NCBI GenBank assembly: GCA_964518565.1
Contig: CAZFGX010000001.1
Location: 360,409 to 424,408 of the forward strand
Direction: 5' to 3'
Source of the DNA: an uncultured Gammaproteobacteria bacterium
GTDB taxonomy: Bacteria > Patescibacteriota > Microgenomatia > CAZETR01 > Amesbacteraceae
Length of the DNA: 64,000 nucleotides
The translations under genes were made by a program, and so were the position numbers. Positions 6,801 to 61,429 of this stretch are shown here, in pieces. Numbering within the stretch: position 1 is the first letter of the stretch; each line of letters begins with the position of its first letter. A model generated the notes under the pieces. The model was given only the letters and a program-made list of their open reading frames with translations, did not search any database and was not told the DNA's origin.

Positions 6801-7472
6801 CTGACCGAACATCCTCATGCTGAGAAACTAAATCAGATGCAAGATGTCACCTCCCACAAAATTACCGAGCTGTACGACGAAAGTTTCATGCGTCAGTATG
6901 TTACCGTTGGTGGTATTGTTGAACAGGTCCGTCAAGTTGTTACCAAGGCGAGTAACTTGCCTATGTGTTTCGCCAAATTGACAGATCTCAATCGTACAGT
7001 CGAGGTGGTCGTTTTCCCCAAAGTCTACGCCGTTACCTCTGCAGTTTGGAAACAAGATAATGTTGTAGTGGTCGCAGGCAAAATTGAGGTTCGTCAGGCT
7101 GCAGCTACCGATGATGACCAAGTCCAAGCCGAGCAAGAAGCCACTATTATTGCCGATACTGCTGCTATGTTTATAGGACCTGAGACTGAATTGCCCAAAA
7201 TACCCACCAATCGAAGATCTGGCTTTGTTTCTACTCCTGCGCCAGTAGTCGAGCGAGTGGTAATTGAAAGACCAATCGTCATAGAAATCCCCAAGGGTAC
7301 GCCACAAAACACACTAGTCGAGCTCAACACGCTGTTGCAAAATTCCAAAGGCAACCGTAAAGCCTCTTTATCATTTATCAATGGTGCCAATACTCGCAAT
7401 ATAGATCTCCCATACCCTCTCGCTTGGGACGAAAGTTTGGCCCAAAAAATTAAGACATTGCTAGGCATGTAG
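3885..7472 (+). CDS. dnaE: DNA polymerase III alpha subunit
   Basis: 1195 aa; N-terminal PHP domain (HLHCHTEYSLLDG), polymerase core, C-terminal OB fold. Confidence 0.95.
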   Translation: MASNFIHLHCHTEYSLLDGLSKVKKLVKRVKELEMPALAMTDHGVMYGAIEFYKECQKEGVKPLIGCEIYTVNFDHTKREGKGENNHLILIAKDHEGYKNLMKISSIAHTEGFYYKPRISKDILRQYAKGLLCTSACPKGEIAELIEAGNIDETKKAISWYQDTFGAENYYLEIQRHQYKNHFEAVKSNPKILDRLQKLQSGEDVWVKTLINLSRELGVPLVATNDAHYIKQSDAKAQDALVCISTGKNVSDLERIRYIDAPAFFVTSEQEMQSLFPDVPDALTNTLKAADSIDLQIELGKWYFPQIELPEGKDAGTQLRYLCDQRLPERYTNITPELEQRMEFELEVICTKGYASYFLMLSDLVNWCTDNGIITNTRGSAAGSMVSFVMGITTVDPIKYQLPFERFLNPFRPSPPDIDLDIADDRREELIAYVTQKFGKDKVAQICTFGRMLARAAVRDVARVLGHPYAVGDRIAKVIPQGAQGFPMTFERALNEAPEFRTMYDTDPVVKEIIDLARDIEGNARHSSVHAAGTVVSPSDMRDFTPLQLEPSGEKIITQYEMHACEDVGLVKFDILGIRNLSILGAARDIVQKSRDIKIDLRQIPVDDKKTFTMLARGDTMGTFQLGGSGMTKWLKELKPNRVEDIMVMIALFRPGPMDNISEFISRKQGKKEVVYMHPKMQKFLDKSYGVLVYQDDLLYTALELAGYDWGEVDKFRKAVGKKIPEEMAKQHVKFVEGCIKNSGLTNEEAEKIWDLFVPFQGYGFNKAHAASYGIISYRTAYMKANYPVEYMTALLTAEAGNTDTIVEAIEECRRLGITVLAPDINASETGFTIEPDEKSLDGRAIRFGLSAIKNVGSVAIDLILRARQDKRFATLTDFILRVDSQKVNRKVLESLTKAGALDEFGNRAAILAGLDKIREKGISISKAKESGQFSLFGDEDTQHDTVDALPNVPEFEKEQRLNLEKELLGFYLTEHPHAEKLNQMQDVTSHKITELYDESFMRQYVTVGGIVEQVRQVVTKASNLPMCFAKLTDLNRTVEVVVFPKVYAVTSAVWKQDNVVVVAGKIEVRQAAATDDDQVQAEQEATIIADTAAMFIGPETELPKIPTNRRSGFVSTPAPVVERVVIERPIVIEIPKGTPQNTLVELNTLLQNSKGNRKASLSFINGANTRNIDLPYPLAWDESLAQKIKTLLGM

Positions 7473-7496
7473 TTCTATAGTAAAATACTCCCTATT

Positions 7497-7826
7497 ATGG
7501 CTATTTCTCTATCCATCAAAGATACTCCAGTTCATATTGGCGATCTTGTTCGTGTACACCAACGTATTCTCGAGGCTGAAAATAAAGAACGTATTCAAAT
7601 TTTTGAAGGCTTGGTAATCAAGATTCGTGGTCGTGGAGATAGTAAAACCTTCACCGTCAGAAAAACCGGCGCCAACAATATCGGAGTAGAAAAAATCTTC
7701 CCCGTAAATTCTCCTTGGATTGCCAAAATGGAAGTTAAAAAAACTGGTCACGTCCGCCGAGCCAAGTTGTACTATATTCGCGAAAAATCAGCCCGCCAAA
7801 TCGCCACGATTACCCAACAGGCATGA
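7497..7826 (+). CDS. rplS: 50S ribosomal protein L19
   Basis: 109 aa; L19 signature ([16 protein letters not shown]...TFTVRK...[11 protein letters not shown]). Confidence 0.95.
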
Positions 7827-9451
7827 AATCGCGTCTGCTTGTCTTAAGCAGCATTCTTCTTCTCGCTATCTTCCTTCGTTTTTTCTCTCTTTCGCATACG
7901 CCAAATGGGTTTTATTGGGATGAAATAGATGTCGGCTTCCAAGCCAGATCTTTACTAGAGACTGGCAGAGACTATTTTGGAAATCCCTTGCCCCTCTTTT
8001 TACACTCAATGGCCGATTACCGTGCCCCGGTTTTGCTATATAGTGCAGTCCTCCCCAGTAAACTTTTTGGTTTTACGGTATTTAGTACTCGTCTTGTGCC
8101 CGTTATTTGGGGAATATTGGGTATCGCAGCTGCTTATGTATTGGGACAGAGCTTTCGTAAATCAGGTCTTATTTTTTCTTTCGTCATGGCAGTTAGTGTT
8201 TGGCATCTTCAGTATTCTCGTGTCGCCCAAGAACCTGTTGCCATGATTACTTGTCTCCTCATAGCAGCAGCAGCTTGGCAAAAAAGCCGTCAAAAGCCCA
8301 TTTGGTTTACTATTTCACTAGTATTTTTTGGCCTTAGCTTGTTGGCATATAGCACCGCCAAACTTTTTGTTCCTCTCTGGCTAGTAGTATTGGCTATCTG
8401 GTGCCGGCCAAAAAAAATAAGCCGGTTAGGTATTTTTGCATTCTTTTTAATTGCCATCCCGGTAGGGCTAGATTCGCTATTTGGTCACAGCGGCATGCGC
8501 TTTCACGACTTGGCCGTCTATACCAACCCAGTAGTGCCAACAGAAATCGATCAAAAACGTCTAGAAACTCAGATAGGACTAAAAAATCAGCGTACAGTCG
8601 GTATATCGCCGAGTTTGGCAGATAAATTTGCTTACAACAAGCCGGAAGAATGGGTGAGTACAATTTCCAAAAATTATCTTAGTGCTTTTTCGTCTGACTT
8701 TTTGTTTATTAAAGGAGACGTTCAACTTCGTCATTCACCGTCCAGTAACTCTATTGGCATGCTATTTGCCATAGAATCAATTGCATTAATTATTGGTCTA
8801 TTTGCCACACGCCAGCTTTCAAAGCCTCAAAAGATTTTTTTGCTTTCTTGGATCCTTCTTGCTCCATTACCCGCTAGTCTCACGCGAGACGGTTTTGCTC
8901 ATGCTGGACGTCTAATGATACTCATGCCAGCACTTCTGCTTTTAGTCGGACTGGGGCTAAAATCTCTTGCCAATTATAAATTCTTCCGTACTGTCTTTTG
9001 GCTTATTTATATAGCGACAATTGCCAATACGTATTATTTTTATTTTTCCAGATATCGATTGGAATCTGCTATTCCATTCCAATATGCCCACATTCAAGCG
9101 GCCAACGCTGCTATAGCCAAAACAGTGGAATCTGATCAGGTTATTCTAGATATGGCCGACGATTCTGGCCTGATGGCCTACATCTTTGCCAGTCATGTGA
9201 CACCAGCTCAGTTTCAAGCGAACCTGCCTTTAAAATATGTCGAAATAACCCCTGATATTCGTGGCTACGCATTTGGAAAACTTGTAGTGTTAGAACCAGG
9301 CAAACGCAATTGGACCGATCAAAAATTCAAAACCAAAACCTATATCGTCGCTTCCGCCAAAGAGCCGCTTCTGGACACATATCAACCCAAGCCAGACCAA
9401 ATCAATTATCCCGACGGTACGCCTGCGTTCTATCTCTTTTCTTCTAAGTAG
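7823..9451 (+). CDS. GT39/GT83-family (ArnT/PMT-like) membrane glycosyltransferase
   Basis: 542 aa multi-TM; N-terminal motif [28 protein letters not shown] typical of dolichyl/undecaprenyl-phosphate-sugar dependent glycosyltransferases; ATGA overlap with rplS. Confidence 0.7.
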
Positions 9452-10787
9452 TCACCTCATGCAGCAAGCCATTATTTAATCGCATTTGCCTCTGTACGCA
9501 CGCTCGGACTAAATGCTGGTCGTGTGAGACCAAAAGCAGAGTTCCTTCATATGTTTGTAAAAATCTTTCCAATGCCAAAACCGTTCGTAGATCTAGATGA
9601 TTGGTTGGTTCATCTAAGACCAAAATATCTGGATTGGTGGCCAAAAACTTTGCCAACTGCAAACGCGACTTTTGTCCGCCACTGAGCAATTTAATTGGTT
9701 GGCCAATTTGTGCCGCAGAAAACAAAAATTTTTTCAAATACGCAATTCCGTCATAATGATATATTCCCTTACTTTTTTGTAATTCCTCCAGAGGTGATAA
9801 TTGTTCATCTAATGCTGCCAAATGATCTTGGGCATAATACCCGATTCGTAGTCCTGAACCAATCTGCACAGTTCCAGAATCAGCCGATGTTTTGCCCACA
9901 ATAATATTAAGCAGAGTAGATTTCCCCGAACCGTTTGGAGCCGATATTGCTATCTTTTCACCACAAAACGCATGTAAATGCGTTCCATGTAACACATGAT
10001 TTTTGCTGTAAGACTTTTCCAATTTATCTATATACACCGCTGTTTTTTTGGCATGTTGATCTTGTATCTGAGTCTGCATGTGCACAGTCTTTTGCTCAGG
10101 TGGCTTTTCTACCATATCTCGTACCCAGCGGTCATACCGCTTTTCCGCACTGTGATATCGCCCGACAAATGCATCATTTGCTGCGGCCTGAACACGCAAT
10201 CGTTTGACCAGATCCAAAAGTCGCAATCGTTCTTTTTCTTGCACTTCCCACAAATGTTGCCGGCTGGCCATGGTATCTTCATAAATATCGCGAAATCTTT
10301 TATAGCCAAATGAATACGCCGTGACGATTGCTTCCTCCAAATGCCAAATATTATCCACTGCCTCCTCCAAAAAGGTTCTATCATGGGAAATCACTATCAC
10401 AATGCCCGAAAATTCTTTCACTAATTCCATAAACCACTGTTTGTGATCCAGATCTAGATGATTGTCCGGCTCATCCAAGAGTAAGACGTTTAAATCCGAA
10501 TAAAACAGTTCAGTAATCTTCAAAATTTTTTTCTCTCCACCTGATACATCAAAGCTATCTGACACAATTTCTTGCTCCAAATAGCCGATTTTGGTATCCT
10601 GGCTCCACAAAATTTCACCGCTATCAGCAGTTTCTCCTCCTGACAAAATTTTCAAAAGAGTCGATTTTCCAGATCCGTTGTCGCCAATCAATCCAATTTT
10701 CATCGTCCCCCGTGCCTGCAAATTCACCCCAGTAAACAGAGGTTGTACAAAACCTTTTGAAATAGTTTTTACCTGTAATTGAGCCAT
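9444..10787 (-). CDS. ABC-F family ATPase (two tandem ABC domains, no TM domain)
   Basis: 447 aa; N-terminus MAQLQVKTISKGF resembles EttA/Uup; two Walker A motifs (GLIGDNGSGKST, ISAPNGSGKST) and two LSGG signatures. Confidence 0.85.
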   Translation of the reverse strand: MAQLQVKTISKGFVQPLFTGVNLQARGTMKIGLIGDNGSGKSTLLKILSGGETADSGEILWSQDTKIGYLEQEIVSDSFDVSGGEKKILKITELFYSDLNVLLLDEPDNHLDLDHKQWFMELVKEFSGIVIVISHDRTFLEEAVDNIWHLEEAIVTAYSFGYKRFRDIYEDTMASRQHLWEVQEKERLRLLDLVKRLRVQAAANDAFVGRYHSAEKRYDRWVRDMVEKPPEQKTVHMQTQIQDQHAKKTAVYIDKLEKSYSKNHVLHGTHLHAFCGEKIAISAPNGSGKSTLLNIIVGKTSADSGTVQIGSGLRIGYYAQDHLAALDEQLSPLEELQKSKGIYHYDGIAYLKKFLFSAAQIGQPIKLLSGGQKSRLQLAKFLATNPDILVLDEPTNHLDLRTVLALERFLQTYEGTLLLVSHDQHLVRACVQRQMRLNNGLLHEVTT

Positions 10788-13304: not shown

Positions 13305-13376
13305 GGCCTCATCGTCTAGCGGCTAGGACACCGGGCTTTCATCCCGGTAACCGGGGTTCGATTCCCCGTGAGGTCA
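13305..13376 (+). tRNA. tRNA-Glu (anticodon TTC)
   Basis: GGCCTCATCGTCTAGCGGCTAGGACACCGGGCTTTCATCCCGGTAACCGGGGTTCGATTCCCCGTGAGGTCA folds as a cloverleaf; anticodon loop CTTTCAT. Confidence 0.85.
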
Positions 13377-13481
13377 CAAATTATATCCTATAATATTTAC
13401 TTCTTGGGCAATTTTTGCTATACTTCAGCCTCACTCTCGCGCATTGAAAAATTGTGAACTGAAACTTTTGTAGGAGGCTGT

Positions 13482-13895
13482 ATGGGAAAAAGAGCAGTAA
13501 GAAATGATAGTTTTCTCTATCGATATTGGATCTGGGATTTTCCAGAAATTAAGGCTGAAATCGAATCACTATTCGCCGAAGCGGGCACTGTCAAAATCTT
13601 GGATGACGACGAAAATTCGTTGAAAATCGAGTTGGAATTGCATAAACCACTAGCGATAGTTCGAACTAGTGGTGCAGATGGAATTATGGTAAACACCTCC
13701 ACATATACATGTGTGGGGACTAAGCCGTCGGTACATCTGTACCAGATTCCAAAAAAAGGTGATAAAACAATCATTTTTTTCATAGATCTGGAACTAGAAA
13801 CGTCGATTGAATATAAAACGCTAACACCAGACGACTTGCGCCAGGCTATCAGAAGTGTCGCGAAAGCGATGACCGAAACCTGGCACATCATCTAA
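13482..13895 (+). CDS. hypothetical protein (137 aa)
   Basis: ORF with AGGAGG-like RBS (gtaggaggctgtATG); first gene of a 4-gene cluster. Confidence 0.55.
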   Translation: MGKRAVRNDSFLYRYWIWDFPEIKAEIESLFAEAGTVKILDDDENSLKIELELHKPLAIVRTSGADGIMVNTSTYTCVGTKPSVHLYQIPKKGDKTIIFFIDLELETSIEYKTLTPDDLRQAIRSVAKAMTETWHII

Positions 13896-15894: not shown

Positions 15895-16683
15895 ATGGGT
15901 TGGGGCAAAGTAGGTAAAAGAATTTTGGTGCTATGTGTTTTTGTCGGCTTGGGGTTGGCATATGTGTTTGCCTCGGGTTGCAACAATGGCGATATGTTTG
16001 CTCCATTGTGTGGGTTAGGCCAACTCATGTTTTTGGCATTAGGTATTGGCCTGATCGTGGCATTTACCTTGGTCAGTCTGATCATTTTCCGCCCTTGGAA
16101 ATCCTCGGTCTCCGTACTCCCAAACAAGAGTGAGATCTTCAAATTTGTTATCACGCTTTTGTTGGCGATTCCTGTCTGTGGACTTATTTTGGGTGGCATA
16201 TTCTATGGCTATTTAGGAGTCACATTGTTGGCCGACAATCGCACCAAAACCCAAACCATAAACAATTACTCAGTCCAAAATTTCTCTGAATCCCCAGTAG
16301 TCAATCAGGTCACCAAAAAATATACCGCCATCACCGTCAAATTTACTCTGACTGCTGCCAAAGCTGGCAATTATAGTGGAGTGGTTCAGCTAGATGAGTA
16401 TTTTGGCCATTATATGACTACTCGATTCGACGGAGTCTATCTGCCGGCCAACACACCTGTACCATTTATGTTCATTCTTGAACCACAACCTGAATTTTTT
16501 ACCTCACAGGCTAATGGTCCATATTATCTCAATCTAGATATTTGGCCAGTAGATCCGGGCAGTGCGTTTCGCCATGTAAAAATTACTGGCGACAAAAATG
16601 GAACCAATACGTTAGGAGGTCCGACCAAATATATTCCTGGTCTACAAACTCGCAGCTATCTATTTACCGATTTTGCCAATTAA
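15895..16683 (+). CDS. hypothetical membrane protein with extracytoplasmic domain (262 aa)
   Basis: 3 N-terminal TM helices followed by a roughly 150-aa polar domain. Confidence 0.5.
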   Translation: MGWGKVGKRILVLCVFVGLGLAYVFASGCNNGDMFAPLCGLGQLMFLALGIGLIVAFTLVSLIIFRPWKSSVSVLPNKSEIFKFVITLLLAIPVCGLILGGIFYGYLGVTLLADNRTKTQTINNYSVQNFSESPVVNQVTKKYTAITVKFTLTAAKAGNYSGVVQLDEYFGHYMTTRFDGVYLPANTPVPFMFILEPQPEFFTSQANGPYYLNLDIWPVDPGSAFRHVKITGDKNGTNTLGGPTKYIPGLQTRSYLFTDFAN

Positions 16684-17792
16684 ATTCCCAATCCCTGCCA
16701 AAAGTTTTTCAATGCTCCATACGCTGGCTTGTTATAAATACCCCAATAATCTTCATTTGCCTTCTGGTCAAAACAAGTCAAACAAACCCACGACTGACCT
16801 GCGTCAGGTGTGGCCTGATTGGGATCGCCGATTTTTGACCAATCATCGGTAAAAGCAAATAGAAATGCTCCAGCAAAAGTATTTGGTCGTAGCCTGCTCG
16901 CTTGTTCCACAATACTGGTCATCTGTATCAATCGATCTGCCTGAGTGGTCTGGTTTTCACTCATGGTTCGCACATCAAAGCTGTCTGAACCGTATTCATG
17001 TAACAATACTGAGATCCCAGGCCATTGAGTGGTGACACGATCAATTCGAGCCAGTAATCCTGCCAGGGTATCCCATTCATAATCATTTATCGTATACGTA
17101 GTCAGGTGTGGGGCACTAGTTTTGAGATAAGGGAGTGCTACCAAATTTGAGTTGTCAGCATAGAGCACTTGTTTACCTGGAGCAGTTTTAGCTGTCCAGT
17201 CGACCATAGAGCCTATCCAGCTGGCATATGCCTGTCTACTCTCCTGTGTCGGCAATTGTTCAAATACTTCGTTACCTATCAAATAGGCATATACATTTGT
17301 ATTTGTCATCGTATCTTTGACTAAAGCTTGAAATTGGCTGGTTGCTCGCGAAATAGTTGCAGATTGTGTCCAATCTTGAGTAGAGTTAGAAAAATAGCCA
17401 ATCAAAAGCTTCAAATTTCTTTGTTTTGCTACTGGATAGACGGTTTCGCAAAATGTCTTTCCAGAAGTAATATTCCAATTCGAATACCAATCAAATAGAC
17501 CACAGTTATATAGTCCTACTGCCCTGGCTCCTGTATCAGCCAAAGCGTTCATTTGTGCCGAAATACTCGCAGTGTTTGTTTCCAAAGCAGTTTCGTTCAT
17601 GGGGTTGTAGTTTATCCCGCGCAAAAAATCTGTTCGTGTAGGCACCATGGTCGGGGTTGGAATCAAAGTAGGGGTAGGGGAAGGTTTTTTGGACTTTGCT
17701 GACATGGCAAATGAAGGCGCAAATACGACTCCGATTCCTAGCGCTACGACGCTCAAAACAATAAAAAATAATTTTTGCTTTTGCATGAACAA
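16680..17792 (-). CDS. secreted glycoside hydrolase, clan GH-A (GH5-like TIM barrel)
   Basis: signal peptide plus Pro/Thr-rich linker; IGNEVFE (acid/base NE) and LHEYGSD (nucleophile E) motifs spaced as in GH5-type enzymes. Confidence 0.6.
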   Translation of the reverse strand: MFMQKQKLFFIVLSVVALGIGVVFAPSFAMSAKSKKPSPTPTLIPTPTMVPTRTDFLRGINYNPMNETALETNTASISAQMNALADTGARAVGLYNCGLFDWYSNWNITSGKTFCETVYPVAKQRNLKLLIGYFSNSTQDWTQSATISRATSQFQALVKDTMTNTNVYAYLIGNEVFEQLPTQESRQAYASWIGSMVDWTAKTAPGKQVLYADNSNLVALPYLKTSAPHLTTYTINDYEWDTLAGLLARIDRVTTQWPGISVLLHEYGSDSFDVRTMSENQTTQADRLIQMTSIVEQASRLRPNTFAGAFLFAFTDDWSKIGDPNQATPDAGQSWVCLTCFDQKANEDYWGIYNKPAYGALKNFWQGLGI

Positions 17793-17812
17793 GTACTATA
17801 CCATACCCAGAT

Positions 17813-17841
17813 TTGCTAATAGTCCTATAGTATTATATAAT
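17813..17841 (+). promoter_or_regulatory. sigma70-like promoter TTGCTA-17-TATAAT with embedded CCTATAGTATT motif
   Basis: -35 at 17813-17818, -10 at 17836-17841, ATG of GT2 gene at 17851. Confidence 0.5.
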
Positions 17842-17850
17842 ATAGAAGAT

Positions 17851-19776
17851 ATGGACAAAAAGTCAATATTTTCTCCTCGACAATGGCTAGTATTTTCTAT
17901 TCTTGTTTGTGCCTGGTTGGCCTCTGTTTGGCTATTTTGGGGTTGGTGGTTGCGACCCGAGCATCGCGGCGACCCTCTTTTATTCTGGTTAGTTAGCTTC
18001 GCCTTCTTCTACGACGGGACTTTTTTGCCGACGATGTTTTTGTATTATCTTGGTCGAGCCAAAAAACCGGTGACCAAAAAAGTTACTGAAAAATTATCTA
18101 CAGCCAAAGTCGCCATGATCTCGCTCACTGTGCCAGGGTCAGAAGCCTTGGAAATAGTCGAACGTCAGCTTGTGGCTATGAAGGCTGTAAAATTTCCCCA
18201 TGACAGCTGGATACTAGTAGACAAAGTTCATTCTCCTGAAATAGCCAAATTGGCCAAAAAACACGGAGTAAAGTATTTCTGTCGTCATGATGCAGATGCT
18301 TGGGGAGCGGATAAAGTGGCCTATTGGAATCAATCGGTTCCTCCTTTCAAAGCTAAAACCAAAGCCGGAAATGTAAATGCCTGGATCGACGCCCACGGAG
18401 CCAAATATGACTATTTTACCCAGCTAGATATTGATCATTTGCCAATCCCTGAATATTTAGACAAAGTATTGGGCTATTTTGCCAAACCAACCATTGCTTG
18501 GGTGCAGGCACCAAGTGTGTATGGCAATTTGGAGTATTGGACTGCTAAAGGTGCCGCCGAACAAGAACTCGTCCTCCAAGGACCATTGCAAATGGGCTTT
18601 TATGGCAGTACCGATACTCCATTTATTATTGGTAGTCACAGTACCTATCGCATGTCCGCAGTCAAAGAAATTGGTGGATTTCAGCCTACTCGTGCCGAAG
18701 ATCATTTAGACACACTTTATCTGGCCACCAAAGGATACACTGGAGTATTTTTGCCTGAAGTTATTGCTACCGGTGACGGGCCAGAAACGTTTGAAATTTA
18801 TCTGTCCCAACAGTTCGCTTGGGCCTATTCGTTGGTTCAAGTACTAATGAGCCATGCACCAAAAGCTCTCTGGCGTCTAAAGCCATCTGTGGCATTACAA
18901 ATGTTGTTTGCCGAGACTTGGTACCCACTGTGGACACTGGCCATGCTTACCTTGTTTATCTCTCCGTCTATTGCCCTGATCACAGGCCGACATATTTCAG
19001 TCGTCAATTTCTGGGACTTCACACTTCGAAGTGCCGGCATGGGGCTAGTTGGTTTTGCTGCCTGGCTGTGGAGCCGTCGCTGGCATCAGCCCAAAGGTTT
19101 GGGTCTATCATGGCGGGGGATTATGCTGCACAGTGCCCGTTGGGTGGTAGTATTTTCAGCTATTATCCAAGCAGTATTCCGAGTAAAAAAGCCGTACATG
19201 ATTACCCAAAAAGGCGGCAACGAAGGCAAGACTGTGAGTATTGGTGCTCTGATGCCGTATATTATTCTATTGTACTCAGTTCTAGGTGTTTGTTTGTGGT
19301 ATATCAGCCGAGTCGGTATTGGGCCTACCCAGGGGTATTTACTCTTTAGCCTAGAGGGTGCATTTTTTATGAGTATTGTCGCCATATTACCTGTAGTTTT
19401 ATTAATTAAAGAACATGGTTGGATCTCTTTCAAAAACCATAAATTAGCCCTAAGTGTCATTGGTATTGCCTTTATCGTATTTATTGTCGATTCGCTCTTT
19501 GCTTATCCATTAGTCACCAAGGCCATCTGGAACGAATCAGAACAACCAATGCTTATGCCAGTAGCTAATACTATCATTACGCCAACAGTAACCCCTTCAC
19601 CAACTCCAGTTCCATCTATCAGCACATCAAATATTCACATCGTTCAAAACGGTGAATCCCTCTGGTCTATCGCCCAAAAATATTATGGCGACGGGTCAAA
19701 GTGGCCCCACCTCTCTCGATCGTTTAACTCAACTACGATTCACCCCGGCGACCGAATCGAATATAATCTCCCTTAA
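17851..19776 (+). CDS. GT2-family processive glycosyltransferase (cellulose/chitin synthase-like) with C-terminal LysM domain
   Basis: multi-TM; catalytic-core motifs (QLDIDH, RAEDH, SQQFAWAYS); Pro/Thr linker then LysM (IHIVQNGESLWSIAQKYYGDGSKWPHL...IHPGDRIEYNLP). Confidence 0.75.
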   Translation: MDKKSIFSPRQWLVFSILVCAWLASVWLFWGWWLRPEHRGDPLLFWLVSFAFFYDGTFLPTMFLYYLGRAKKPVTKKVTEKLSTAKVAMISLTVPGSEALEIVERQLVAMKAVKFPHDSWILVDKVHSPEIAKLAKKHGVKYFCRHDADAWGADKVAYWNQSVPPFKAKTKAGNVNAWIDAHGAKYDYFTQLDIDHLPIPEYLDKVLGYFAKPTIAWVQAPSVYGNLEYWTAKGAAEQELVLQGPLQMGFYGSTDTPFIIGSHSTYRMSAVKEIGGFQPTRAEDHLDTLYLATKGYTGVFLPEVIATGDGPETFEIYLSQQFAWAYSLVQVLMSHAPKALWRLKPSVALQMLFAETWYPLWTLAMLTLFISPSIALITGRHISVVNFWDFTLRSAGMGLVGFAAWLWSRRWHQPKGLGLSWRGIMLHSARWVVVFSAIIQAVFRVKKPYMITQKGGNEGKTVSIGALMPYIILLYSVLGVCLWYISRVGIGPTQGYLLFSLEGAFFMSIVAILPVVLLIKEHGWISFKNHKLALSVIGIAFIVFIVDSLFAYPLVTKAIWNESEQPMLMPVANTIITPTVTPSPTPVPSISTSNIHIVQNGESLWSIAQKYYGDGSKWPHLSRSFNSTTIHPGDRIEYNLP

Positions 19777-20411: not shown

Positions 20412-20431
20412 ATATCAAATAACCTATAGTA

Positions 20432-20460
20432 TTGATTTTTAGGCTCAAATCGTGTAAAAT
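20432..20460 (+). promoter_or_regulatory. sigma70-like promoter TTGATT-17-TAAAAT preceded by ACCTATAGTA motif
   Basis: same architecture as promoters at 24955 and 26010. Confidence 0.55.
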
Positions 20461-20547: not shown

Positions 20548-21471
20548 ATGAATAGCATTGCCATATTAAAGGCTCGGGTTTCTGTGCTTACAGAACAAAT
20601 AAAACCAGCAGTCCGCGATCACAGGTTCTATCTAATACTACTAGGCACATTCACCCTAGTTTTACTGATTCGACAGTTCACAAACAGTATCCCGTTTAGT
20701 ATGTTCAACTTTTTTTTCATTCGCTGGGAATGGGGAGAGTTTCTAAATATTCCTTGGTTCCTACTTCTAGTAGGACCAATTCGAAACTTGATTGATTGCA
20801 TTCGCACCAGAAACACCAAACGCGAAAATATGCTCATCTTATCGAATTTTGAAAGCAACATTGTAACGTCATTCTTGGCTGGAATTTTCGAAGAAATATC
20901 GTATCGTTGGCTCGGTTTTTACTTCGCGATCTCCACATTCTATCTGAGTGAACTATTTACTGGTACGCGATTGGGGATGTGGATTTATTCACATCTCGTG
21001 GTGTCAATTGGAATAACCCTTGTCTTACTAGGTATTGGGGCGGTATCTTACATAAACGGAATCGAATCTTTTCCAAGTATGGCCGTTGCTGCAGTATGTT
21101 TGGTTCTTTTTGTATTGTGCGCGATCATGGTCGGTCTCGCAGCTTCGAAACAACTCTATACTTCAATCATCATTCCTATCGTCGATTGGGTAACTCAATA
21201 TAAGTTAAGCACTCAATTGCACGAATATGGTTGGATTGTGGGCGCAGCAGTTATTAGTGTAAATGGCAGATTTAGTAGTGGCCATGGATATCAAGGGTTT
21301 TTCGGCTTAGTCAACTCTTGGATCGGTGGAATTCTGTTGTTTTGGTTTATGTTCAATTTTGGCTTACCTGTCGCGATTGGTATACACGTGCTATATGACG
21401 TGGTTATCAATTCTATTGTTGGAGCAGACTCTTTTATTGAAATGAGCACAGCTACATATAAACGTAGCTAA
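20548..21471 (+). CDS. CPBP-family (CAAX protease/Abi-like) intramembrane metalloprotease
   Basis: multi-TM; EExxxR motif (FEEISYRWLGF) and C-terminal HxxxD (HVLYD); AAGGAG RBS 7 nt upstream. Confidence 0.55.
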   Translation: MNSIAILKARVSVLTEQIKPAVRDHRFYLILLGTFTLVLLIRQFTNSIPFSMFNFFFIRWEWGEFLNIPWFLLLVGPIRNLIDCIRTRNTKRENMLILSNFESNIVTSFLAGIFEEISYRWLGFYFAISTFYLSELFTGTRLGMWIYSHLVVSIGITLVLLGIGAVSYINGIESFPSMAVAAVCLVLFVLCAIMVGLAASKQLYTSIIIPIVDWVTQYKLSTQLHEYGWIVGAAVISVNGRFSSGHGYQGFFGLVNSWIGGILLFWFMFNFGLPVAIGIHVLYDVVINSIVGADSFIEMSTATYKRS

Positions 21472-24281: not shown

Positions 24282-24935
24282 ATGCCAAGCAATAACGGAA
24301 ATAACGAAACAATTCCCCAAGCCCCAAAAACTTCTCATGTTGCAGTATATATTCTGGTTTTCTTGTTAGTTTTCTTTGTCGGTGTATCAGGATATCTGCT
24401 CTACAATACCTATACTTCACCCAAATCTGACACCAAGTCGATGACTAAGGCAGCCAGTACCCCTCAATTGTCTATACCCAAAGATGCAGTAAAAATTTCC
24501 GGCTGTATTTCCCATGAGGGTGAGCATTGGGTTCAACCCCAAAATCTTCCCAATGGACCATTTTACGTTGCCTACAACAACAAAGTATTGGCTTTTGAGT
24601 ACATGCTTTCAGCAGACCAAATTCCAGGCAACGACATTGCCCACATGACTCCAGAGCAGTCGATGAAATACCTCCAAGACAACAAAATGTCTCTCTCAGA
24701 TTTTGTCCACCAACTAGACAAGACCTATGAATTACCCGCTAGCAGTCTCAAAGACTTTAGTATCCACTGGACACCTCCCCATGCCGGCTTTGTCGTTCCA
24801 CATTACGATATCCATTTTTACTTGGTGGACAAGTCAGAACGTGACCAAGTCTGTCCAGCAGCCACCTTTGACCAAATTCTCCCAGCCGACATGGTCCAAG
24901 ATCTGAAGCAACGTGGTATCGCTGTCCCGCAATAA
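24282..24935 (+). CDS. membrane-anchored hypothetical protein (217 aa)
   Basis: single N-terminal TM then polar domain; divergent from HK gene. Confidence 0.5.
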   Translation: MPSNNGNNETIPQAPKTSHVAVYILVFLLVFFVGVSGYLLYNTYTSPKSDTKSMTKAASTPQLSIPKDAVKISGCISHEGEHWVQPQNLPNGPFYVAYNNKVLAFEYMLSADQIPGNDIAHMTPEQSMKYLQDNKMSLSDFVHQLDKTYELPASSLKDFSIHWTPPHAGFVVPHYDIHFYLVDKSERDQVCPAATFDQILPADMVQDLKQRGIAVPQ

Positions 24936-24954
24936 CCTTCTGTATCCTATAGTA

Positions 24955-24983
24955 TTGACTTTTTAGCTTCAAAATGGTATTAT
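24955..24983 (+). promoter_or_regulatory. sigma70-like promoter TTGACT-17-TATTAT preceded by ATCCTATAGTA motif
   Basis: consensus -35, 17-nt spacer containing TAGCTTCAA, -10 TATTAT; roughly 100-nt leader to ATG 25086. Confidence 0.6.
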
Positions 24984-25060
24984 AAAGGCTATATAAGCCT
25001 ATCAAACAGCCTCAATCTCGTGGCTACTTTGGAGGATTATTTATCTAGTTTAGTACCTTA

Positions 25061-25073
25061 AAATTGCGGATTT
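25061..25073 (+). repeat. leader motif AAATTGCGGATTT (inverted partner of the post-stop AATCCGCAATT motifs)
   Basis: immediately 5' of RBS AGGAGA of gene 25086; reverse complement of motif at 27289. Confidence 0.5.
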
Positions 25074-25085
25074 AGGAGAAAAAGT

Positions 25086-25358
25086 ATGTTATCCATACTA
25101 GTGACGTTTGTTGTAGGTCTTGCGTTAGCTTGGTTTGGTGAAGGTCGAATCATCGACATTCGTACAAATGAAGCCTACGCCGAAATATCTGATCAACCTC
25201 ACAGCGATTTCCAAAAAAACGAATCAGAACGTTTTGTTACAGTTTTTGCCCTAATTATGGGGCTGGGAATCATTCTGATTGTCATAAGTATTGTTGGCCT
25301 TGTTCTGTTTCTTTTCGCCCAAACTTGGGTGATAGATATAAACATTCATTTTCGATAA
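25086..25358 (+). CDS. small membrane protein (90 aa, 2 TM)
   Basis: ORF with AGGAGA RBS. Confidence 0.5.
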   Translation: MLSILVTFVVGLALAWFGEGRIIDIRTNEAYAEISDQPHSDFQKNESERFVTVFALIMGLGIILIVISIVGLVLFLFAQTWVIDINIHFR

Positions 25359-25376
25359 ATAAGGAGAAAAACAGAT

Positions 25377-25622
25377 ATGCAACCTATCCAAAGTTTTATG
25401 CCACTCGTAGGTGTCGTTCTTCTGGTCATTGGCTTTTTTGTTTTTGGTGCGTGCCGTATGTATATACGGGTCGCAAGCCGGTCAATCGTCCAGTTCGCCG
25501 AAAGTCAGGAGGGCACAAAGCCCGGGGCTATGGGACGAGCACTCACCGCGCTACTCCAAGGCGTAAGTATTGCGGCAATCGGTGCCGGAATCATCGCGTT
25601 GGGTCTCGCAGCGATTCAATAA
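25377..25622 (+). CDS. small membrane protein (81 aa, 2 TM)
   Basis: ORF with RBS aggagaaaa. Confidence 0.5.
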   Translation: MQPIQSFMPLVGVVLLVIGFFVFGACRMYIRVASRSIVQFAESQEGTKPGAMGRALTALLQGVSIAAIGAGIIALGLAAIQ

Positions 25623-25657
25623 CTCAATCATTTTTTCAAATTCATAAGGACAAATGA

Positions 25658-25924
25658 ATGATAAACCAAACAATTAGTTTTGTGCTGCACTATCCCTTTC
25701 ATCTCATTGTTGGTGGAGTGATTGCAGCCGTAGTCTTCGGTGTCATTTCTCTGGTCGTTGCAGCTATCGGCAAAGAAAAGTCTAGTTTCACTGTCGGTGG
25801 CGCATATGTGTTCTATGGCTTGATGTATTTGAGTGGAGGAGTGGTGGCAATCACTATCTTCATAAACATATCGTTTGCAGTCATCGTATTTCTATCGAGC
25901 GTCATTTACGCATTGCAAACATAA
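25658..25924 (+). CDS. small membrane protein (88 aa, 2-3 TM)
   Basis: ORF with RBS aaggac. Confidence 0.5.
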   Translation: MINQTISFVLHYPFHLIVGGVIAAVVFGVISLVVAAIGKEKSSFTVGGAYVFYGLMYLSGGVVAITIFINISFAVIVFLSSVIYALQT

Positions 25925-25956
25925 CAATCCCGTTTTTAATCCGCAGTTTTCGCTTT

Positions 25957-25991
25957 GGCGCTTGGGGTTTTACCCTAGGCGCCATTTTTTT
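25957..25991 (+). terminator. rho-independent terminator
   Basis: GGCGCTTGGGG...CCCTAGGCGCC stem then ATTTTTTT; preceded by TAATCCGCAGTTTT motif (25938-25951). Confidence 0.6.
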
Positions 25992-26009
25992 GCTATATAA
26001 CCTATAGTT

Positions 26010-26038
26010 TTGATTTTTTAGCCTCAATAGCGTATAAT
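26010..26038 (+). promoter_or_regulatory. sigma70-like promoter TTGATT-17-TATAAT preceded by ACCTATAGTT motif
   Basis: near-duplicate of promoter at 24955 including spacer TAGCCTCAA. Confidence 0.6.
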
Positions 26039-26104
26039 TGAATCCATATAAACCTATCAAACAGCCTCAAACACTGAAGCTAGGCGATAGAGTTTAGAAC
26101 CTTA

Positions 26105-26119
26105 AAAATTTGCGGATTT
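26105..26119 (+). repeat. leader motif AAAATTTGCGGATTT
   Basis: second copy of the leader motif, 20 nt upstream of ATG 26139. Confidence 0.5.
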
Positions 26120-26138
26120 TTAAATTCAAATAGGAGAA

Positions 26139-26903
26139 ATGTATATGATACTCGCAAGTCTTTTGTTCCTTATTTTAGCCACGTTGAATATAGCGATCTA
26201 TCGACAGTACAAAAATGTATTGCCCCAAGCCAGCAAGATTGGACTACTGATCTTGTCGGTAATGTACGCCATCCTTTCTGGTGCTTACATTTTTACGATC
26301 TTTGACACAAATTTTTCAGTCAGCGTTCTAAAACTGTATGGCGTGATACTTATGTCTGTATCCTACATGGAAATAGTTGTTATAAAAGGACTGGAGTCAG
26401 ACTTCCCAGAGAGTAATCCCAAGATTGGTCAAATACCAATTCTTTATCTCTGTTTAGTCTTGCTTGCAGCAGGTTTTGGGTTGTTTGTTATTGGAAGTTT
26501 TGAAACAGAGGACTCTGCCTTTCAAGTAAATATCCTCATGTCGACGCATGTGTTGGCCTTTCTTATCTTATCTAGTTTTTGTCTTTATATCGAAAGAAAA
26601 TATCGACATCTAGTTCACGATAGAGTGGACTGGAGTCTCGTCTCACTGGCCATTTTGTGCAGTCTACTTTCAAGCATATCTTTATGTACAATGTCTCTGT
26701 CAGTGGTTGATATTCTTTGGATTCATATTGGTGGATATTTGATTGCCTTGTTTGCCGCAATTGTGGCAATCATGCAGTTTGTTCTCCTCCAGGTCGAATA
26801 TCCTTCAATCAAATCAGTTGCACAATATATGGTCTTAGGGTGTTCAATCTCTCTTATCATTCTCGGCGCGATTCTCACGAGGGTTGTAATGCCTCAGGGG
26901 TAA
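26139..26903 (+). CDS. polytopic membrane protein (254 aa, about 8 TM)
   Basis: hydrophobic ORF with RBS TAGGAGAAA. Confidence 0.55.
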   Translation: MYMILASLLFLILATLNIAIYRQYKNVLPQASKIGLLILSVMYAILSGAYIFTIFDTNFSVSVLKLYGVILMSVSYMEIVVIKGLESDFPESNPKIGQIPILYLCLVLLAAGFGLFVIGSFETEDSAFQVNILMSTHVLAFLILSSFCLYIERKYRHLVHDRVDWSLVSLAILCSLLSSISLCTMSLSVVDILWIHIGGYLIALFAAIVAIMQFVLLQVEYPSIKSVAQYMVLGCSISLIILGAILTRVVMPQG

Positions 26904-27306: not shown

Positions 27307-27345
27307 CGGCGTCTGACAGACAAAATCTGTTAGGCGCCTTTTTTT
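27307..27345 (+). terminator. rho-independent terminator (about 12-bp stem + T7)
   Basis: GGCGTCTGACAG/CTGTTAGGCGCC stem followed by TTTTTTT; preceded by AAAAATCCGCAATTTC motif at 27285-27300. Confidence 0.65.
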
Positions 27346-27469
27346 ATTTTCGCTTGGAAAAATGGTAAAATCTAGCCTCAAACAACCATATACTACAGCT
27401 GTGTATGACTTGTTCTAGTAGTACATTCAAATTGCAGATAAAAATTCGAACAAAAAAAGGAGAATCTGT

Positions 27470-28169: not shown

Positions 28170-28192
28170 TATAAAACTGCTAAGATAAATAT

Positions 28193-28795
28193 ATGGCAGT
28201 CGTTACGCCAGTCAAAAATACTTCTAGTGTCTTCGTCCGAGTCATTATTTTTATACTCATATTGGCCGTTATTATTGGCCTAGGTGTCTATCTGTTTCGT
28301 TTATTACGACCTAACAAATCAAACTTCAGCTTCCCCCAAAATACATTTTCTTCCCGAGTCGAGCCTCGCACATATATCGACAAAGATGGTAAAAAAATCA
28401 CCTACTATGTCCTCAACACTCAAAACCAGACCCGTGAAGATTATTATAGTTGTAAATTTGTAGTTGTAGCCAAGGGAACCCTGACTCAATACCAGGGATT
28501 TTTATCAGACTATCAACTCAAAAATTGTAATGCTGCAGGTCGAGAAGTTCGACCCAATTATGAATGTCGCCTAGATAATGGCATTAAAAAATATTTCAAA
28601 TACGAACCTGCTATCACTCTGCGAAAATTTCCTGCCAATTCTAGCCATGAAATCGCCGTGAGTCGATTTTATATTTCCCAGACACTTCTATCCGAAAGCT
28701 TTCTGACTCAAAACCAATTATCCGATATTTTCGAGTATCAAATTTCCTGTAACACGGAGGCTGGCAAAACTGGACTTCACATTCAGACACTGTAA
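28193..28795 (+). CDS. membrane-anchored hypothetical protein (200 aa) with Cys-containing extracytoplasmic domain
   Basis: N-terminal TM anchor; polar C-terminal domain. Confidence 0.5.
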   Translation: MAVVTPVKNTSSVFVRVIIFILILAVIIGLGVYLFRLLRPNKSNFSFPQNTFSSRVEPRTYIDKDGKKITYYVLNTQNQTREDYYSCKFVVVAKGTLTQYQGFLSDYQLKNCNAAGREVRPNYECRLDNGIKKYFKYEPAITLRKFPANSSHEIAVSRFYISQTLLSESFLTQNQLSDIFEYQISCNTEAGKTGLHIQTL

Positions 28796-47029: not shown

Positions 47030-47666
47030 GAGCCAGATTATAGACCTAGTTCATCATCTTCTAAAACCGGAAAACTTTTTAGTCTCACTCGGTCCTTGGG
47101 CGGTCATTGCGGTCACAGCCATCGTATTTGCCGAATCTGGACTCTTTTTTGGCTTCTTCTTGCCTGGGGATAGTCTGTTATTCACTGCCGGACTTTTAGC
47201 ATCTCAAGGCTATGTAAATATATTTTTACTATTAGTCTGTAGTTTTGCCGCTGCAGTCTTGGGCGACAATGTTGGCTATATGTTTGGCCACAAAGTCGGG
47301 CCCAGAATTTTTGCCCGCGAAGACTCAAAGTTATTCAAAAAACATCATTTAGAAGCCGCCAAAAAGTTTTATGAAAAACACGGCTCCAAAACTATAGTTT
47401 TAGCTAGATTTGTCCCATTTGTTCGCACATTTGCCCCAATCGTTGCTGGTGCTGCCCAAATGCCATACCGGACATTTATGACCTACAATCTATTAGGAGG
47501 ACTGCTTTGGGCCGTTGGTCTTACCCTCATGGGGTATTTCTTGGGCAATATTCCCTTTATTCGTCAACACAATGAAACCATTATTATAATTATCATTTTA
47601 GTTTCCGTGGTTCCTGTAATCACCCACGCAATCCAAGCGAAACTCGATTCCAAAAAAACTCACTAG
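47028..47666 (+). CDS. DedA/SNARE-associated family membrane protein
   Basis: motif ESGLFFGFFLPGDSLLFTAG; start set at MSQIID abutting the rsmI start. Confidence 0.75.
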   Translation: MSQIIDLVHHLLKPENFLVSLGPWAVIAVTAIVFAESGLFFGFFLPGDSLLFTAGLLASQGYVNIFLLLVCSFAAAVLGDNVGYMFGHKVGPRIFAREDSKLFKKHHLEAAKKFYEKHGSKTIVLARFVPFVRTFAPIVAGAAQMPYRTFMTYNLLGGLLWAVGLTLMGYFLGNIPFIRQHNETIIIIIILVSVVPVITHAIQAKLDSKKTH

Positions 47667-48298
47667 TTACTAGCACTAAATTTTCGTATCACTCCCACAC
47701 ATCGGCCCTGGATTTTTACTTTGGTCACAAAAATAGGGGACATCGTAGAATTTGCTGGTTCCAGTCTTACTCGTGTTGCTTCTTTGTAATAGCGTTTTAA
47801 TGTGGCAAAACCATTGTCCAAAAGTGCTACGACTACATCACCATTTTTAGCATCTTCCACTTGTTCTATTACTACATAATCTTTGTCATATATTCCTGCT
47901 TCAATCATTGATTCTCCTTTTACTTGCAAGACAAAACAACGTTTTTTGCTATTGATCATACTAGGTGGTACAGCAAAAGTAGCACTTGGATCAGTAAATG
48001 GTTCTATTGGTTGTCCAGCAGCAATAAAACCCATAACAGGCAGGTCAATTGCTGCTACTGATTGCGTCCGATCAGCAGCTTGTTTGTCTAATATTTCTAT
48101 ACCTCGTACCGAGCCGTCAAATCGTTTGATTACCCCTTTACGTTCCATGGCTTCCAAATGTTCGTGAACTGTTGCCAGTGAAGACACTCCCAATGCTTTA
48201 GCAATTTCTTGTAGAGTTGGGGAGTAACCATTGGTTTGGATATATTGAGCTACAAAATCCAAAATCTGTCTTTGGCGATTATAGAGTGTGACTGGCAT
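47663..48298 (-). CDS. lexA: LexA repressor
   Basis: N-terminal wHTH (LQEIAKALGVSSLATVHEHLEAMERKGVI) and S24 peptidase domain (VKGESM...K). Confidence 0.85.
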   Translation of the reverse strand: MPVTLYNRQRQILDFVAQYIQTNGYSPTLQEIAKALGVSSLATVHEHLEAMERKGVIKRFDGSVRGIEILDKQAADRTQSVAAIDLPVMGFIAAGQPIEPFTDPSATFAVPPSMINSKKRCFVLQVKGESMIEAGIYDKDYVVIEQVEDAKNGDVVVALLDNGFATLKRYYKEATRVRLEPANSTMSPIFVTKVKIQGRCVGVIRKFSASN

Positions 48299-48329
48299 AC
48301 CCTTAATCTACCCGAAGAAAAACCAAATG

Positions 48330-48584
48330 TCAACTACCCAGATGCTCAAATTCTCGTTTAGTTACATAACTAGTATCCAACACTTCTACTACTCGATCAA
48401 TAATTGACTCGGACATATCTTTTAAATCTTCTTTTGTAGCAAATTGCTCTAGATCTTTTTTAGTGGCAAACCGTTCCAAGTCCTCCTTTGTAGCAAAAGT
48501 GTCAAATCGTTTTTCTAGACTCAGTCGAAAATCTGCCAATGCTTCTAGTAATTGTTCTTGAGTCAACGGAGCCTGTGGAACCAT
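48330..48584 (-). CDS. hypothetical protein (84 aa) with three tandem 9-aa repeats (FATKEDLER/FATKKDLEQ/FATKEDLKD)
   Basis: ORF immediately upstream of lexA on same strand; 27-nt DNA repeats each containing TTTGNNNCAAA; coding status uncertain. Confidence 0.4.
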   Translation of the reverse strand: MVPQAPLTQEQLLEALADFRLSLEKRFDTFATKEDLERFATKKDLEQFATKEDLKDMSESIIDRVVEVLDTSYVTKREFEHLGS

Positions 48585-48617
48585 AAAACTATATTACCAG
48601 ATCTGTATAATGAAGTC

Positions 48618-58801: not shown

Positions 58802-59051
58802 ATTTACCTTCCATTTGTTCAACCTAATTTCTGCCGATATCCATAGTCGCAACTATGTCATCTCAGTCACAGAATCCCCATTCGGTCAGGTGGGAACCAA
58901 AAAAGCCCAAAATTTAGGCACTTTTGCTTCCCACCTGGAATATGTAATTATTGTCTGTTAAAGAGCTAAATATAGCCTCAAATTAGCCATGTTTCGCATT
59001 GAATCTAGGCCAACAGATCTATATCCTATAGTATAGCACATTTTTGCCTGC

Positions 59052-59080
59052 TTGGCAACTTGTCAGCCTGGGTGTATATA
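59052..59080 (+). promoter_or_regulatory. sigma70-like promoter TTGGCA-17-TATATA
   Basis: ATG at 59089 only about 8 nt downstream, suggesting a leaderless/short-leader mRNA; ATCCTATAGTAT motif 20 nt upstream. Confidence 0.45.
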
Positions 59081-60710: not shown

Positions 60711-61424
60711 CTACTCTTCATCTGGGTCAAAACTCCGAATCGTAGTCTCAAAAGGACTTTCTTGAGCCATATTGGCATTATCTTTACTCAAAAGCATTTT
60801 TACCCTTTGGCCAAAATCTTCAAATTTTGCTTTTATCTGATTTGTTTTTTCACTCACAGCTTTCTTTCCAAAAAATAAAGCCAGCTTAGGTATAGCTTCC
60901 CAGCGATTTACCACCATAGTTTTTTCGACCACCTGATCTCTAAAAGGAACAGTCATATGAAATGGTAAGACTTTCCACCCAGGCATTTTTTCCACAGTAT
61001 CAACCAAATCTTTGGTAATAAACAAACTTACTGGAATAGGCGAGTCAACCAATTCTTTCATGAGTCGATATCCTCCTCTGAGAGTTTTTGGGGCAAAGTG
61101 GGTCGGGACAAATACGCCATCCACCGAACTGCCTAGTAAATATCCATCCTTATCTGCTCCGTATGCCAATGATTCATTATAATTTCCGTGATTAAAAAAA
61201 TGATTCTCAAAACTGTTTTGATTCAACGGCTCTCGGCCTCTTCGTTCAATCGCCGCTGCATAGTATTCATAAATCTCTTCCATTAATAAATATTGTTCAC
61301 GATTTGTTAGACCATGTAAAAGTTCTGTTGTCGTAGTCAAACGATTTTTACTCAATTGCTTTTCTGCTGCCAGATCATGTTCTGAAAAACTATTACCTTC
61401 AGCCATACTTTTTAAGTATAGCAA
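60711..61424 (-). CDS. hypothetical protein (237 aa), possibly GNAT-fold
   Basis: RGGYRLMKEL resembles the GNAT motif A R/QxxGxG/A element; otherwise unrecognised. Confidence 0.45.
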   Translation of the reverse strand: MLYLKSMAEGNSFSEHDLAAEKQLSKNRLTTTTELLHGLTNREQYLLMEEIYEYYAAAIERRGREPLNQNSFENHFFNHGNYNESLAYGADKDGYLLGSSVDGVFVPTHFAPKTLRGGYRLMKELVDSPIPVSLFITKDLVDTVEKMPGWKVLPFHMTVPFRDQVVEKTMVVNRWEAIPKLALFFGKKAVSEKTNQIKAKFEDFGQRVKMLLSKDNANMAQESPFETTIRSFDPDEE

Positions 61425-61429
61425 AGCAC

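Follow-up and report, generated by a model that had tools for sequence, protein, structure and literature searches.

A recurrent CTATAG-centred, promoter-associated element and candidate operator in a Microgenomates genome near Amesbacteria

A 12-bp sequence, ATCCTATAGTAT, lies at the upstream edge of a predicted promoter in a stretch of 64,000 nucleotides (the window), and recurs, exactly or with few changes, in other intergenic spaces of the same DNA. The question raised by this locus is what the repeated sequence does there: whether it is bound by a regulator, contacted by RNA polymerase itself, used as part of a second promoter, or carried along passively by a larger duplicated unit. The window was read together with 2.5 kb on its left (L001) and 14.1 kb on its right (L024), for a total of 80.6 kb, corresponding to about 8% of a genome of roughly 1.0 Mb. 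The gene map used over these 80.6 kb combines public gene calls with ORF evidence.

The consensus of the motif is A(T/A)CCTATAGTAT, with CTATAG as its palindromic core. Nine good copies are found in the 80.6 kb, seven within the window and two, in tandem, on its right, upstream of uvrA. Within the window, the exact 12-mer is present at 24944-24955 (+), 59023-59034 (+) and 63223-63234 (-); copies with one mismatch are located at 13385-13396 (ATCCTATAATAT), 17822-17833 (GTCCTATAGTAT) and 20421-20432 (AACCTATAGTAT), and a copy with two mismatches at 25999-26010 (AACCTATAGTTT). An earlier, sequence-only reading had counted eight copies in the window: seven of them are retained here, the eighth, upstream of rplS, carries three mismatches, and homology among several promoters, described below, means that the copies do not represent eight independent events. 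Three of its coordinates were off by one base.

The recurrence itself is well beyond expectation. The 9-mer CCTATAGTA occurs five times in the window, against 0.19 +/- 0.44 expected from 100 dinucleotide shuffles, none of which reached five; the 12-mer, with up to 2 mismatches allowed, is found 15 times in the window, against 4.5 +/- 2.3 expected. Under an order-3 Markov model, no other 9-mer or 10-mer of the window is as over-represented as CCTATAGTA and CCTATAGTA(T), respectively, the latter with 5 occurrences observed and 0.08 expected. Intergenic DNA accounts for only 5.9% of the 80.6 kb, and all nine good copies fall there, as had been proposed; most of the intergenic regions of at least 150 bp contain one. 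Each of the nine points towards the downstream gene, so that, although the core is a palindrome, as previously noted, the site is not symmetric in use. The density is about 1 copy per 9 kb, as compared to about 1 per 20 kb in relatives. An effect of restriction-site avoidance was discarded, since the overall count of CTATAG, 14, shows no depletion with respect to the 13-18 expected. The 12-mer is a real cis element, attached to promoters and kept in relatives.

In five copies (13385, 20421, 24944, 25999 and, on the minus strand, 63223) motif and predicted -35 hexamer overlap by one base, the final T of the former being the initial T of the latter, and a spacer of exactly 17 bp separates this hexamer from the -10 element. 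The sequence-only reading had described such abutment in four cases; the contact is confirmed and the count is raised to five (TTGACT, TTGATT twice, TTGAAA and a weaker TTTACT). At 24944-24955 (+), 9 nt past the stop codon of a gene for a hypothetical protein, hyp217 (24282-24935), the exact ATCCTATAGTAT leads into the core promoter of the mem90 operon (24955-24983, +), composed of TTGACT, the 17-bp spacer and (TGG)TATTAT, and followed by a leader (24984-25085, +). This leader, a paralog of 26039-26144, carries AGGCTATATAAGCCTATCAAACAGCCTCAATCTCG and TTGCGGATTTAGGAG as conserved blocks. The mem252 operon promoter (25999-26038, +), preceded by a terminator hairpin at 25956-25984, contains AACCTATAGTTT, TTGATT and TATAAT at the same spacing; the promoter of a CPBP/CAAX-like membrane protein gene (20548-21471), at 20421-20460 (+), contains AACCTATAGTAT, TTGATT, the 17-bp spacer and TAAAAT. 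The exact ATCCTATAGTAT is found again in the promoter of hyp114 (63195-63234, -), with TTGAAA, 17 bp and (TGG)TATTTT, and ATCCTATAATAT in that of hyp137 (gene at 13482-13895; promoter at 13385-13424, +, 8 nt past tRNA-Glu), with TTTACT, 17 bp and (TGC)TATACT. All five have the features of sigma-70-type promoters, including A2 and T6 in the -10 element, which is often TGn-extended, and their genes begin 86-134 nt downstream. With respect to the predicted starts of transcription, the CTATAG dyad is centred at about -40.5 to -41.5 (-40.5 if the -10 element is taken to span -12 to -7). A comparison of the motif with the -35 and -10 boxes, as suggested earlier, thus revealed a fixed register in these five copies.

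Two observations concern the DNA next to these promoters. Within the 3' half of tRNA-Glu (13341-13383), one Logan contig stops at 13383 and another, from an independent assembly, begins at 13341, which suggests a repeat or a strain-variable junction; no second copy of the 13341-13383 stretch is present in the 80.6 kb. Beside hyp217 and the motif-bearing operons, the segment 21516-24220 (-) encodes a histidine kinase of Cache-HAMP-PAS type and a 125-aa response regulator, which consists of a receiver only and lacks a DNA-binding domain. The order of kinase, receiver and hyp217 is kept in the relative locus L037, and a scan of a genome collection with the histidine kinase returned only distant kinases, with at most 41% identity; a further look-up of the kinase gave no match.

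An invariant -35 register with 17-bp spacers in five copies is what an intrinsic promoter element would produce, namely a lineage-specific element, of the upstream or "extended -35" kind, with which the polymerase would make contact via sigma region 4 or the C-terminal domain of alpha, and which would raise promoter strength without any regulator. The fixed orientation with respect to transcription in 9/9 copies fits this possibility, as does the position of the motif just past terminators, given that a gene located there would need a strong promoter of its own. However, its sequence is unlike the A/T-tract consensus of UP elements, and it is absent from promoters expected to be among the strongest or to serve housekeeping genes, such as those of tRNA-Glu, the atp operon, HSP20, Obg and uvrA (P1). 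We consider direct recognition by the polymerase rather unlikely, although it deserves to be kept in mind. The remaining copies are found in quite different positions.

The promoter of the GT2-LysM gene, TTGCTA-17-TATAAT at 17813-17841 (+), contains GTCCTATAGTAT (17822-17833) within its spacer, against the -10 element. The ATG at 17851 follows the -10 element by only 9 nt, and the mRNA is therefore probably leaderless. An automatic gene call (709 aa, start at 17647) would place the copy inside the gene, and would contradict the intergenic location of this copy, which holds on the combined gene map. A start at 17851 seems preferable, as supported by the equivalent start of the ortholog in L021, by the conserved promoter of its own, and by the signal peptide of the divergent gene. 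This minus-strand gene (16680-17792) encodes a clear signal peptide if its start is set at 17786, a reading that needs the DNA occupied by the long GT2 call. The overlapping public calls (306 aa at 16680-17792, -, and 709 aa at 17647-19776, +) are probably wrong. Distances of just 6-10 nt between -10 element and start codon are observed for GT2-LysM (17836-17853), rplS (7481-7499), hyp231 (61404-61430, -) and hyp200 (28170-28195), and also in the relatives L021, L025 and L037, so that leaderless or near-leaderless mRNAs seem to be common in the clade.

The exact ATCCTATAGTAT at 59023-59034 (+), upstream of a Cys-rich ORF of 105/120 aa, abuts no -35 hexamer; a predicted TTGGCA-17-TATATA promoter (59052-59080) begins 17 bp downstream of it, which places the motif at about -58. 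The uvrA pair, AACCTATAGTATAT-ATCCTATAGTAT, located about 1.2 kb past the right end of the window, has a 14-bp period and lies some 30-45 bp upstream of TTGAAC-17-TACAAT, a promoter conserved in a relative, with the two copies at about -68 and -82; the proximal one is also in register with a poor TTATTT-18-TATCTT. The weak copy upstream of rplS (TTCTATAGTAAA, 7473-7484, +) falls in the spacer of the rplS promoter (TTGCTA at 7458-7463, 17 bp, TAAAAT at 7481-7486). Beside its 3 mismatches, it has only CTATAGTA in common with the motif, and its TAGTAAAAT part recurs at other -10 regions in the genome. Membership of rplS in a regulon, as envisaged by the sequence-only reading, is doubtful on these grounds.

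An element read by the polymerase would have to satisfy all these geometries at once: the same 9-mer is found against the -10 element in spacers (17822, and in the relatives L025 and L038), at about -58, -68 and -82, and inverted in L037, arrangements that would involve different surfaces of the enzyme. Another possibility is that the motif is itself a -10-type element (CC followed by TATAGT), belonging to an upstream tandem promoter or acting as a decoy for sigma. TATAGT does serve as a -10 element in the clade (L037, 11676-11802), ACC or CCC directly precedes TATAAT in L021 and L025, and CCCTATAATAT is the -10 element in the GT2 ortholog of L021. Inspection of the flanks revealed no -35-like hexamer 16-18 bp upstream, nor a TGn extension, in any of the nine copies; CC ahead of the -10 element is not a general feature of promoters in this genome, and two -10 elements 14 bp apart, as at uvrA, make no sense as promoters. 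A role as a second -10 element is accordingly regarded as very improbable.

Many of the copies are not independent of each other. The promoters at 20421, 24944, 25999 and 63223 and, more distantly, 13385 are homologous as promoter-plus-leader modules in a gapped alignment, and a sixth homologous region, at 27285, lacks the motif. The copies at 24944 and 25999 are 81% identical over 73 nt (repeat family D1), those at 20421 and 25999 are 74% identical over 54 nt (D4), and these are the largest direct repeats of the window; 63223 and 13385 can be aligned to the module as far as the ribosome-binding site. The genes driven by the modules are not homologous to one another; homologous promoters in front of non-homologous genes, the hallmark of propagated promoters, are observed for 4-5 copies only. 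Four or five copies belonging to a single duplicated family cannot be taken as independent events. The sequence-only reading had allowed that the motif could belong to a larger dispersed repeat unrelated to promoters: part of the copies do belong to a larger repeat, and the repeat is itself a promoter.

When copies were compared together with their flanks, the similarity showed a sharp 5' edge at A[T/A]CC, the 38 nt upstream being at background identity (about 25%). The 12-mers are 75-100% identical to each other; similarity through spacer and -10 element (46-71%) is limited to 20421, 24944, 25999 and 63223, and a common leader, in this comparison as opposed to the gapped alignment of modules, to 24944 and 25999. 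Beyond the 12-mer, the copies at 17822 and 59023 and the uvrA pair have no similarity to the rest, which indicates a discrete and portable element. These data bear on the possibility that the motif is just the passive 5' end of a duplicated module, having a function only by descent. The D1 and D4 repeats, the alignment of 63223 and 13385 to the module and the unrelated genes downstream would all be accounted for in this way. The 17822, 59023 and uvrA copies, with nothing but the 12-mer in common, would not, and within the module family the 12-mer (75-100%) is far better kept than the spacer (46-71%). Passive descent is judged improbable, also for reasons provided by the relatives, given below.

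A miniature transposable element (MITE) or REP-type repeat was similarly rejected, as in four copies the similarity spans only 12 nt, inverted partners are missing and 9/9 copies are co-oriented with the gene. The leaders have features of their own. Blocks of the type (C)AGCCTCA(A/C) near the predicted start, together with AAATTGCGGATTT before the ribosome-binding site, are present at 24984-25085, 26039-26144, 27330-27469 and 13425-13481; 6/10 window copies of AGCCTCA are intergenic, and TTGCGGATT has 7 occurrences against 0.5 expected. A structured leader RNA, such as a riboswitch or another RNA motif, was rejected: among Rfam models, gathering scores were reached only by two tRNAs and none had an E-value of 1 or less in 24930-26150, and the leader showed no covarying structure and no compensatory pairs.

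Conservation, the decisive test, was evaluated at the promoter downstream of hyp217, in the relative loci L035, L036 and L037, as well as in GT2 orthologs and other promoters of relatives. The segment ATCCTATAGTATTGACTTTTTAG, which comprises motif, -35 hexamer and 6 nt of the spacer in an unbroken block, is unchanged in L035 (98% protein identity) and identical at 23/23 positions in L036 (77% protein identity). In the latter, nucleotide identity amounts to 74% in the flanking gene, falling to 51% when only third codon positions are counted, and to 75% over the whole intergenic region, where spacer, -10 element (TATTAT to TATAAT) and leader differ. In L037 (54% amino-acid identity, same kinase-receiver-hyp synteny), CCTATAGT-TTGAGC-17-TATAAT is found directly after the stop codon of the ortholog. 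Conservation upstream of orthologs, which the sequence-only reading had proposed to check, is thus supported. Invariance in an ortholog whose silent sites, at 51% identity, are nearly saturated argues against passive descent, as does the recurrence of the motif in promoters of relatives in other arrangements; the continuity of the block through motif, -35 hexamer and 6 nt of spacer is favourable to a direct contact with polymerase.

GT2 orthologs feature CCTATA[AG]TA in or at the spacer or the -10 element (L021, L037). In L037 the promoter reads TTGACA-ag-CCTATAATA-atatag-TATTAT, while in L021, the only locus returned by a metagenome scan with the GT2-LysM protein (60% identity), CCCTATAATAT constitutes the -10 element itself. 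In four relatives' loci, for a total of 67.6 kb, 3 copies of the exact 9-mer are found where 0.32 would be expected (Poisson P about 0.004), in a sample somewhat biased by the fact that two of these loci were fetched via neighbours of motif copies. All three occurrences are in promoters: inverted and abutting TTGACT-17-TATAAT in L037, within TTGAAT-N11-CCTATAG-TATAAT in L025, and within TTGACA-N10-CCTATAG-TAAAAT in L038, upstream of the hyp114 ortholog. The locus L026, from a more distant relative (50% GC), contains no 9-mer. The copies in L008 (Woykebacteria) are located inside long ORFs and were treated as due to chance. The UvrA protein is 74-78% identical to its best database relatives, several of which are named Amesbacteria. 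A literature search with the motif string matched only unrelated primers, and provided nothing relevant on promoter or regulon motifs of the Candidate Phyla Radiation (CPR).

The explanation that we favour, with a probability of roughly 0.45, is that the motif, attached to sigma-70-type promoters in a family-level clade of Microgenomates near Amesbacteria, is the operator of a putative, probably dimeric, sequence-specific DNA-binding regulator. In the main arrangement, with the site abutting the -35 hexamer, the protein would either contact the alpha subunit and region 4 of sigma or compete with them; in the second one, with the site in the spacer against the -10 element, it would block RNA polymerase. 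We infer binding by a dimer from the palindromic core. In this genome the sites have spread partly by duplication of whole promoter-plus-leader modules, which now drive several unrelated genes for small membrane or hypothetical proteins. Repression or modulation appears somewhat likelier than obligatory activation, because the core promoters are near consensus (for example TTGACT-17-TGGTATTAT) and because some sites lie in spacers; activation from -41 is possible. Of the two alternatives proposed by the sequence-only reading, an operator or a UP-like promoter element, the former is thus preferred, given a sequence unlike UP elements and the copies in spacers, at -58, in tandem and inverted. 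A single 9-mer placed at -41, in spacers, farther upstream, in tandem and, in a relative, inverted is more simply explained by one DNA-binding protein than by several surfaces of the polymerase.

Four features fit an operator less well. A single orientation in 9/9 copies is odd for a symmetric dimer site, and descent from a common module explains it only in part; classical helix-turn-helix dimers would be expected on sites longer than 12 bp, with half-site centres more than about 6 bp apart; RNA polymerase itself, through a direct contact, would account equally well for the exact -35 register of five copies; and the motif is much less dense in relatives. As to the protein itself, Pfam scans of the products of small neighbouring or motif-driven genes detected no DNA-binding domain.

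One of these products, hyp114 (114 aa, 62789-63133, -), encoded by the first gene behind the 63223 copy, had been considered as an autoregulated DNA binder, on the basis of a weak, STIV B116-like Pfam match. This was rejected, as its AlphaFold model (pLDDT 91) has the ring-nuclease fold of AcrIII-1 and Crn2, matching the DUF1874 fold common to STIV B116, AcrIII-1 and Crn2. These proteins we take to be cyclic-oligoadenylate ring nucleases, AcrIII-1 being a viral anti-CRISPR protein. Foldseek matches include 2j85 (E 5e-6), 6scf, 2x4i and 8y7f, and 10 homologues keep H47 and the R84-E90 segment without any change. Judging from the model, hyp114 would be ring-nuclease-like. Its gene is located between uvrB and uvrA, which are adjacent in L025 and L026, and separated here by about 14.6 kb (50.67-65.2 kb; the block begins at 50669, and uvrA at window-equivalent position 65271). 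This intervening DNA, probably an accessory or mobile segment that was inserted here, contains many small hypothetical genes besides that of the ring-nuclease-like protein, and encodes a pair of paralogous GNAT acetyltransferases as well as a 2096-aa protein without Pfam match. The presence of hyp114 within it implies that at least some motif-driven genes have an accessory or mobile-element origin. An att site, or an integron-like cassette boundary, was discarded as an identity for the motif, for want of paired or inverted partners and of a copy at the uvrB side of the inserted block.

Other known sites were compared with the motif and rejected. The tandem pair at uvrA prompted a comparison with the SOS (LexA) box: no copy with up to 2 mismatches is found in the lexA/uvrB promoter region, and the uvrA promoter has in common with L025 only a segment (TTGAACAAAACCCGAA...) that is located past the motif pair, on its downstream side, and is free of the motif. 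Separately, lexA (47663-48298, -) is divergent to uvrB, and a box of the CCGAA..ACCC type is conserved upstream of it in the window (47663-48620), in L025 and in L026; TTGAACAAAACCCGAA is conserved upstream of uvrA (L024, 9950-10000; L025, where 7823-7922 and 9951-10000 contain the candidate boxes). These two elements, which have no relation to the CTATAG motif, are candidate SOS boxes of the clade. The TTGACA promoter of HSP20 (L024, 19720-19782; window-equivalent 74990-75052) is overlapped by a CIRCE-like inverted repeat (TTAGCACTC-N9-...TTGCTAA), with the same layout in L025. NrdR and DnaA boxes differ from the motif in length and core, according to their known consensus, and neither an nrd nor a dnaA context is present. 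T7-type promoters are conserved over about 23 bp, from -17 to +6; of the opposite-strand ATACTATAGG, only ACTATAGG matches the T7 core. Transcripts from a T7-like promoter would, for each of the copies, be antisense to the gene that precedes it, and no such polymerase is encoded in the region. A scan of viral contigs for CCTATAGTATTGAYTTTT, as a possible signature of phage promoters, produced five single matches in AT-rich phage contigs (27-35% GC), a result consistent with chance.

A broader interpretation can be proposed more tentatively: the CTATAG box might be recognised by a global regulator restricted to this clade, or by a factor associated with RNA polymerase, coordinating envelope genes (GT2-LysM and the operons for small membrane proteins), genes derived from mobile or anti-defence elements (the AcrIII-1/Crn2-like ring nuclease) and a second uvrA promoter. 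If so, this would be among the first definable regulons of an uncultivated lineage poor in regulators. To our knowledge, almost nothing is known about the control of transcription in CPR/Patescibacteria, whose tiny genomes contain few recognisable regulators and which lack cultures. The box, sharply defined and conserved among relatives, can be used as bait in DNA-affinity capture, or in DAP-seq with heterologously produced proteins, to find the protein that would bind it; it allows the prediction of a regulon from sequence alone in metagenome-assembled genomes, and it marks the duplication of promoter modules in a very compact genome.

The element can finally be compared with known systems, and a new principle is not revealed by it by itself; both operators beside the -35 hexamer and duplicated promoters are already well known. 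UP elements, with consensus AAAWWTWTTTTNNNAAANNN, are A/T-rich tracts located at -38 to -59. The motif resembles them in being directly upstream of the -35 hexamer of apparently strong promoters after terminators; the identity was rejected because the motif consists of 12 bp with invariant CC and G, has unrelated upstream flanks, occurs also in spacers and is missing from the promoters of Obg, HSP20, the atp operon and tRNA-Glu. In five promoters a pseudo-palindrome at the upstream edge of the -35 hexamer recalls class II sites near -41.5, such as those of CRP/FNR, or of lambda cI at OR2. Those sites, however, span 16-22 bp, with half-sites about 10 bp apart, whereas the motif has 12 bp and a 6-bp core and is found also in spacers; no CRP/FNR-type regulator is encoded in the 80 kb examined. 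A very short palindrome, a tandem pair and an overlap with the core promoter are shared with operators of the ribbon-helix-helix type (the MetJ met-box, Arc, Mnt, CopG). With a half-site spacing of about 6 bp and a 14-bp tandem, the motif would be closer to the sites of small ribbon-helix-helix repressors than to those of helix-turn-helix dimers of the classical kind; a search of the 80 kb for ribbon-helix-helix genes revealed none. Lastly, homologous modules before non-homologous genes are reminiscent of the putative mobile promoters described under the term "promoter propagation in prokaryotes"; in contrast to these, no transposase or MITE structure accompanies the modules, and the 12-mer is found also outside of any module and conserved at orthologous sites.
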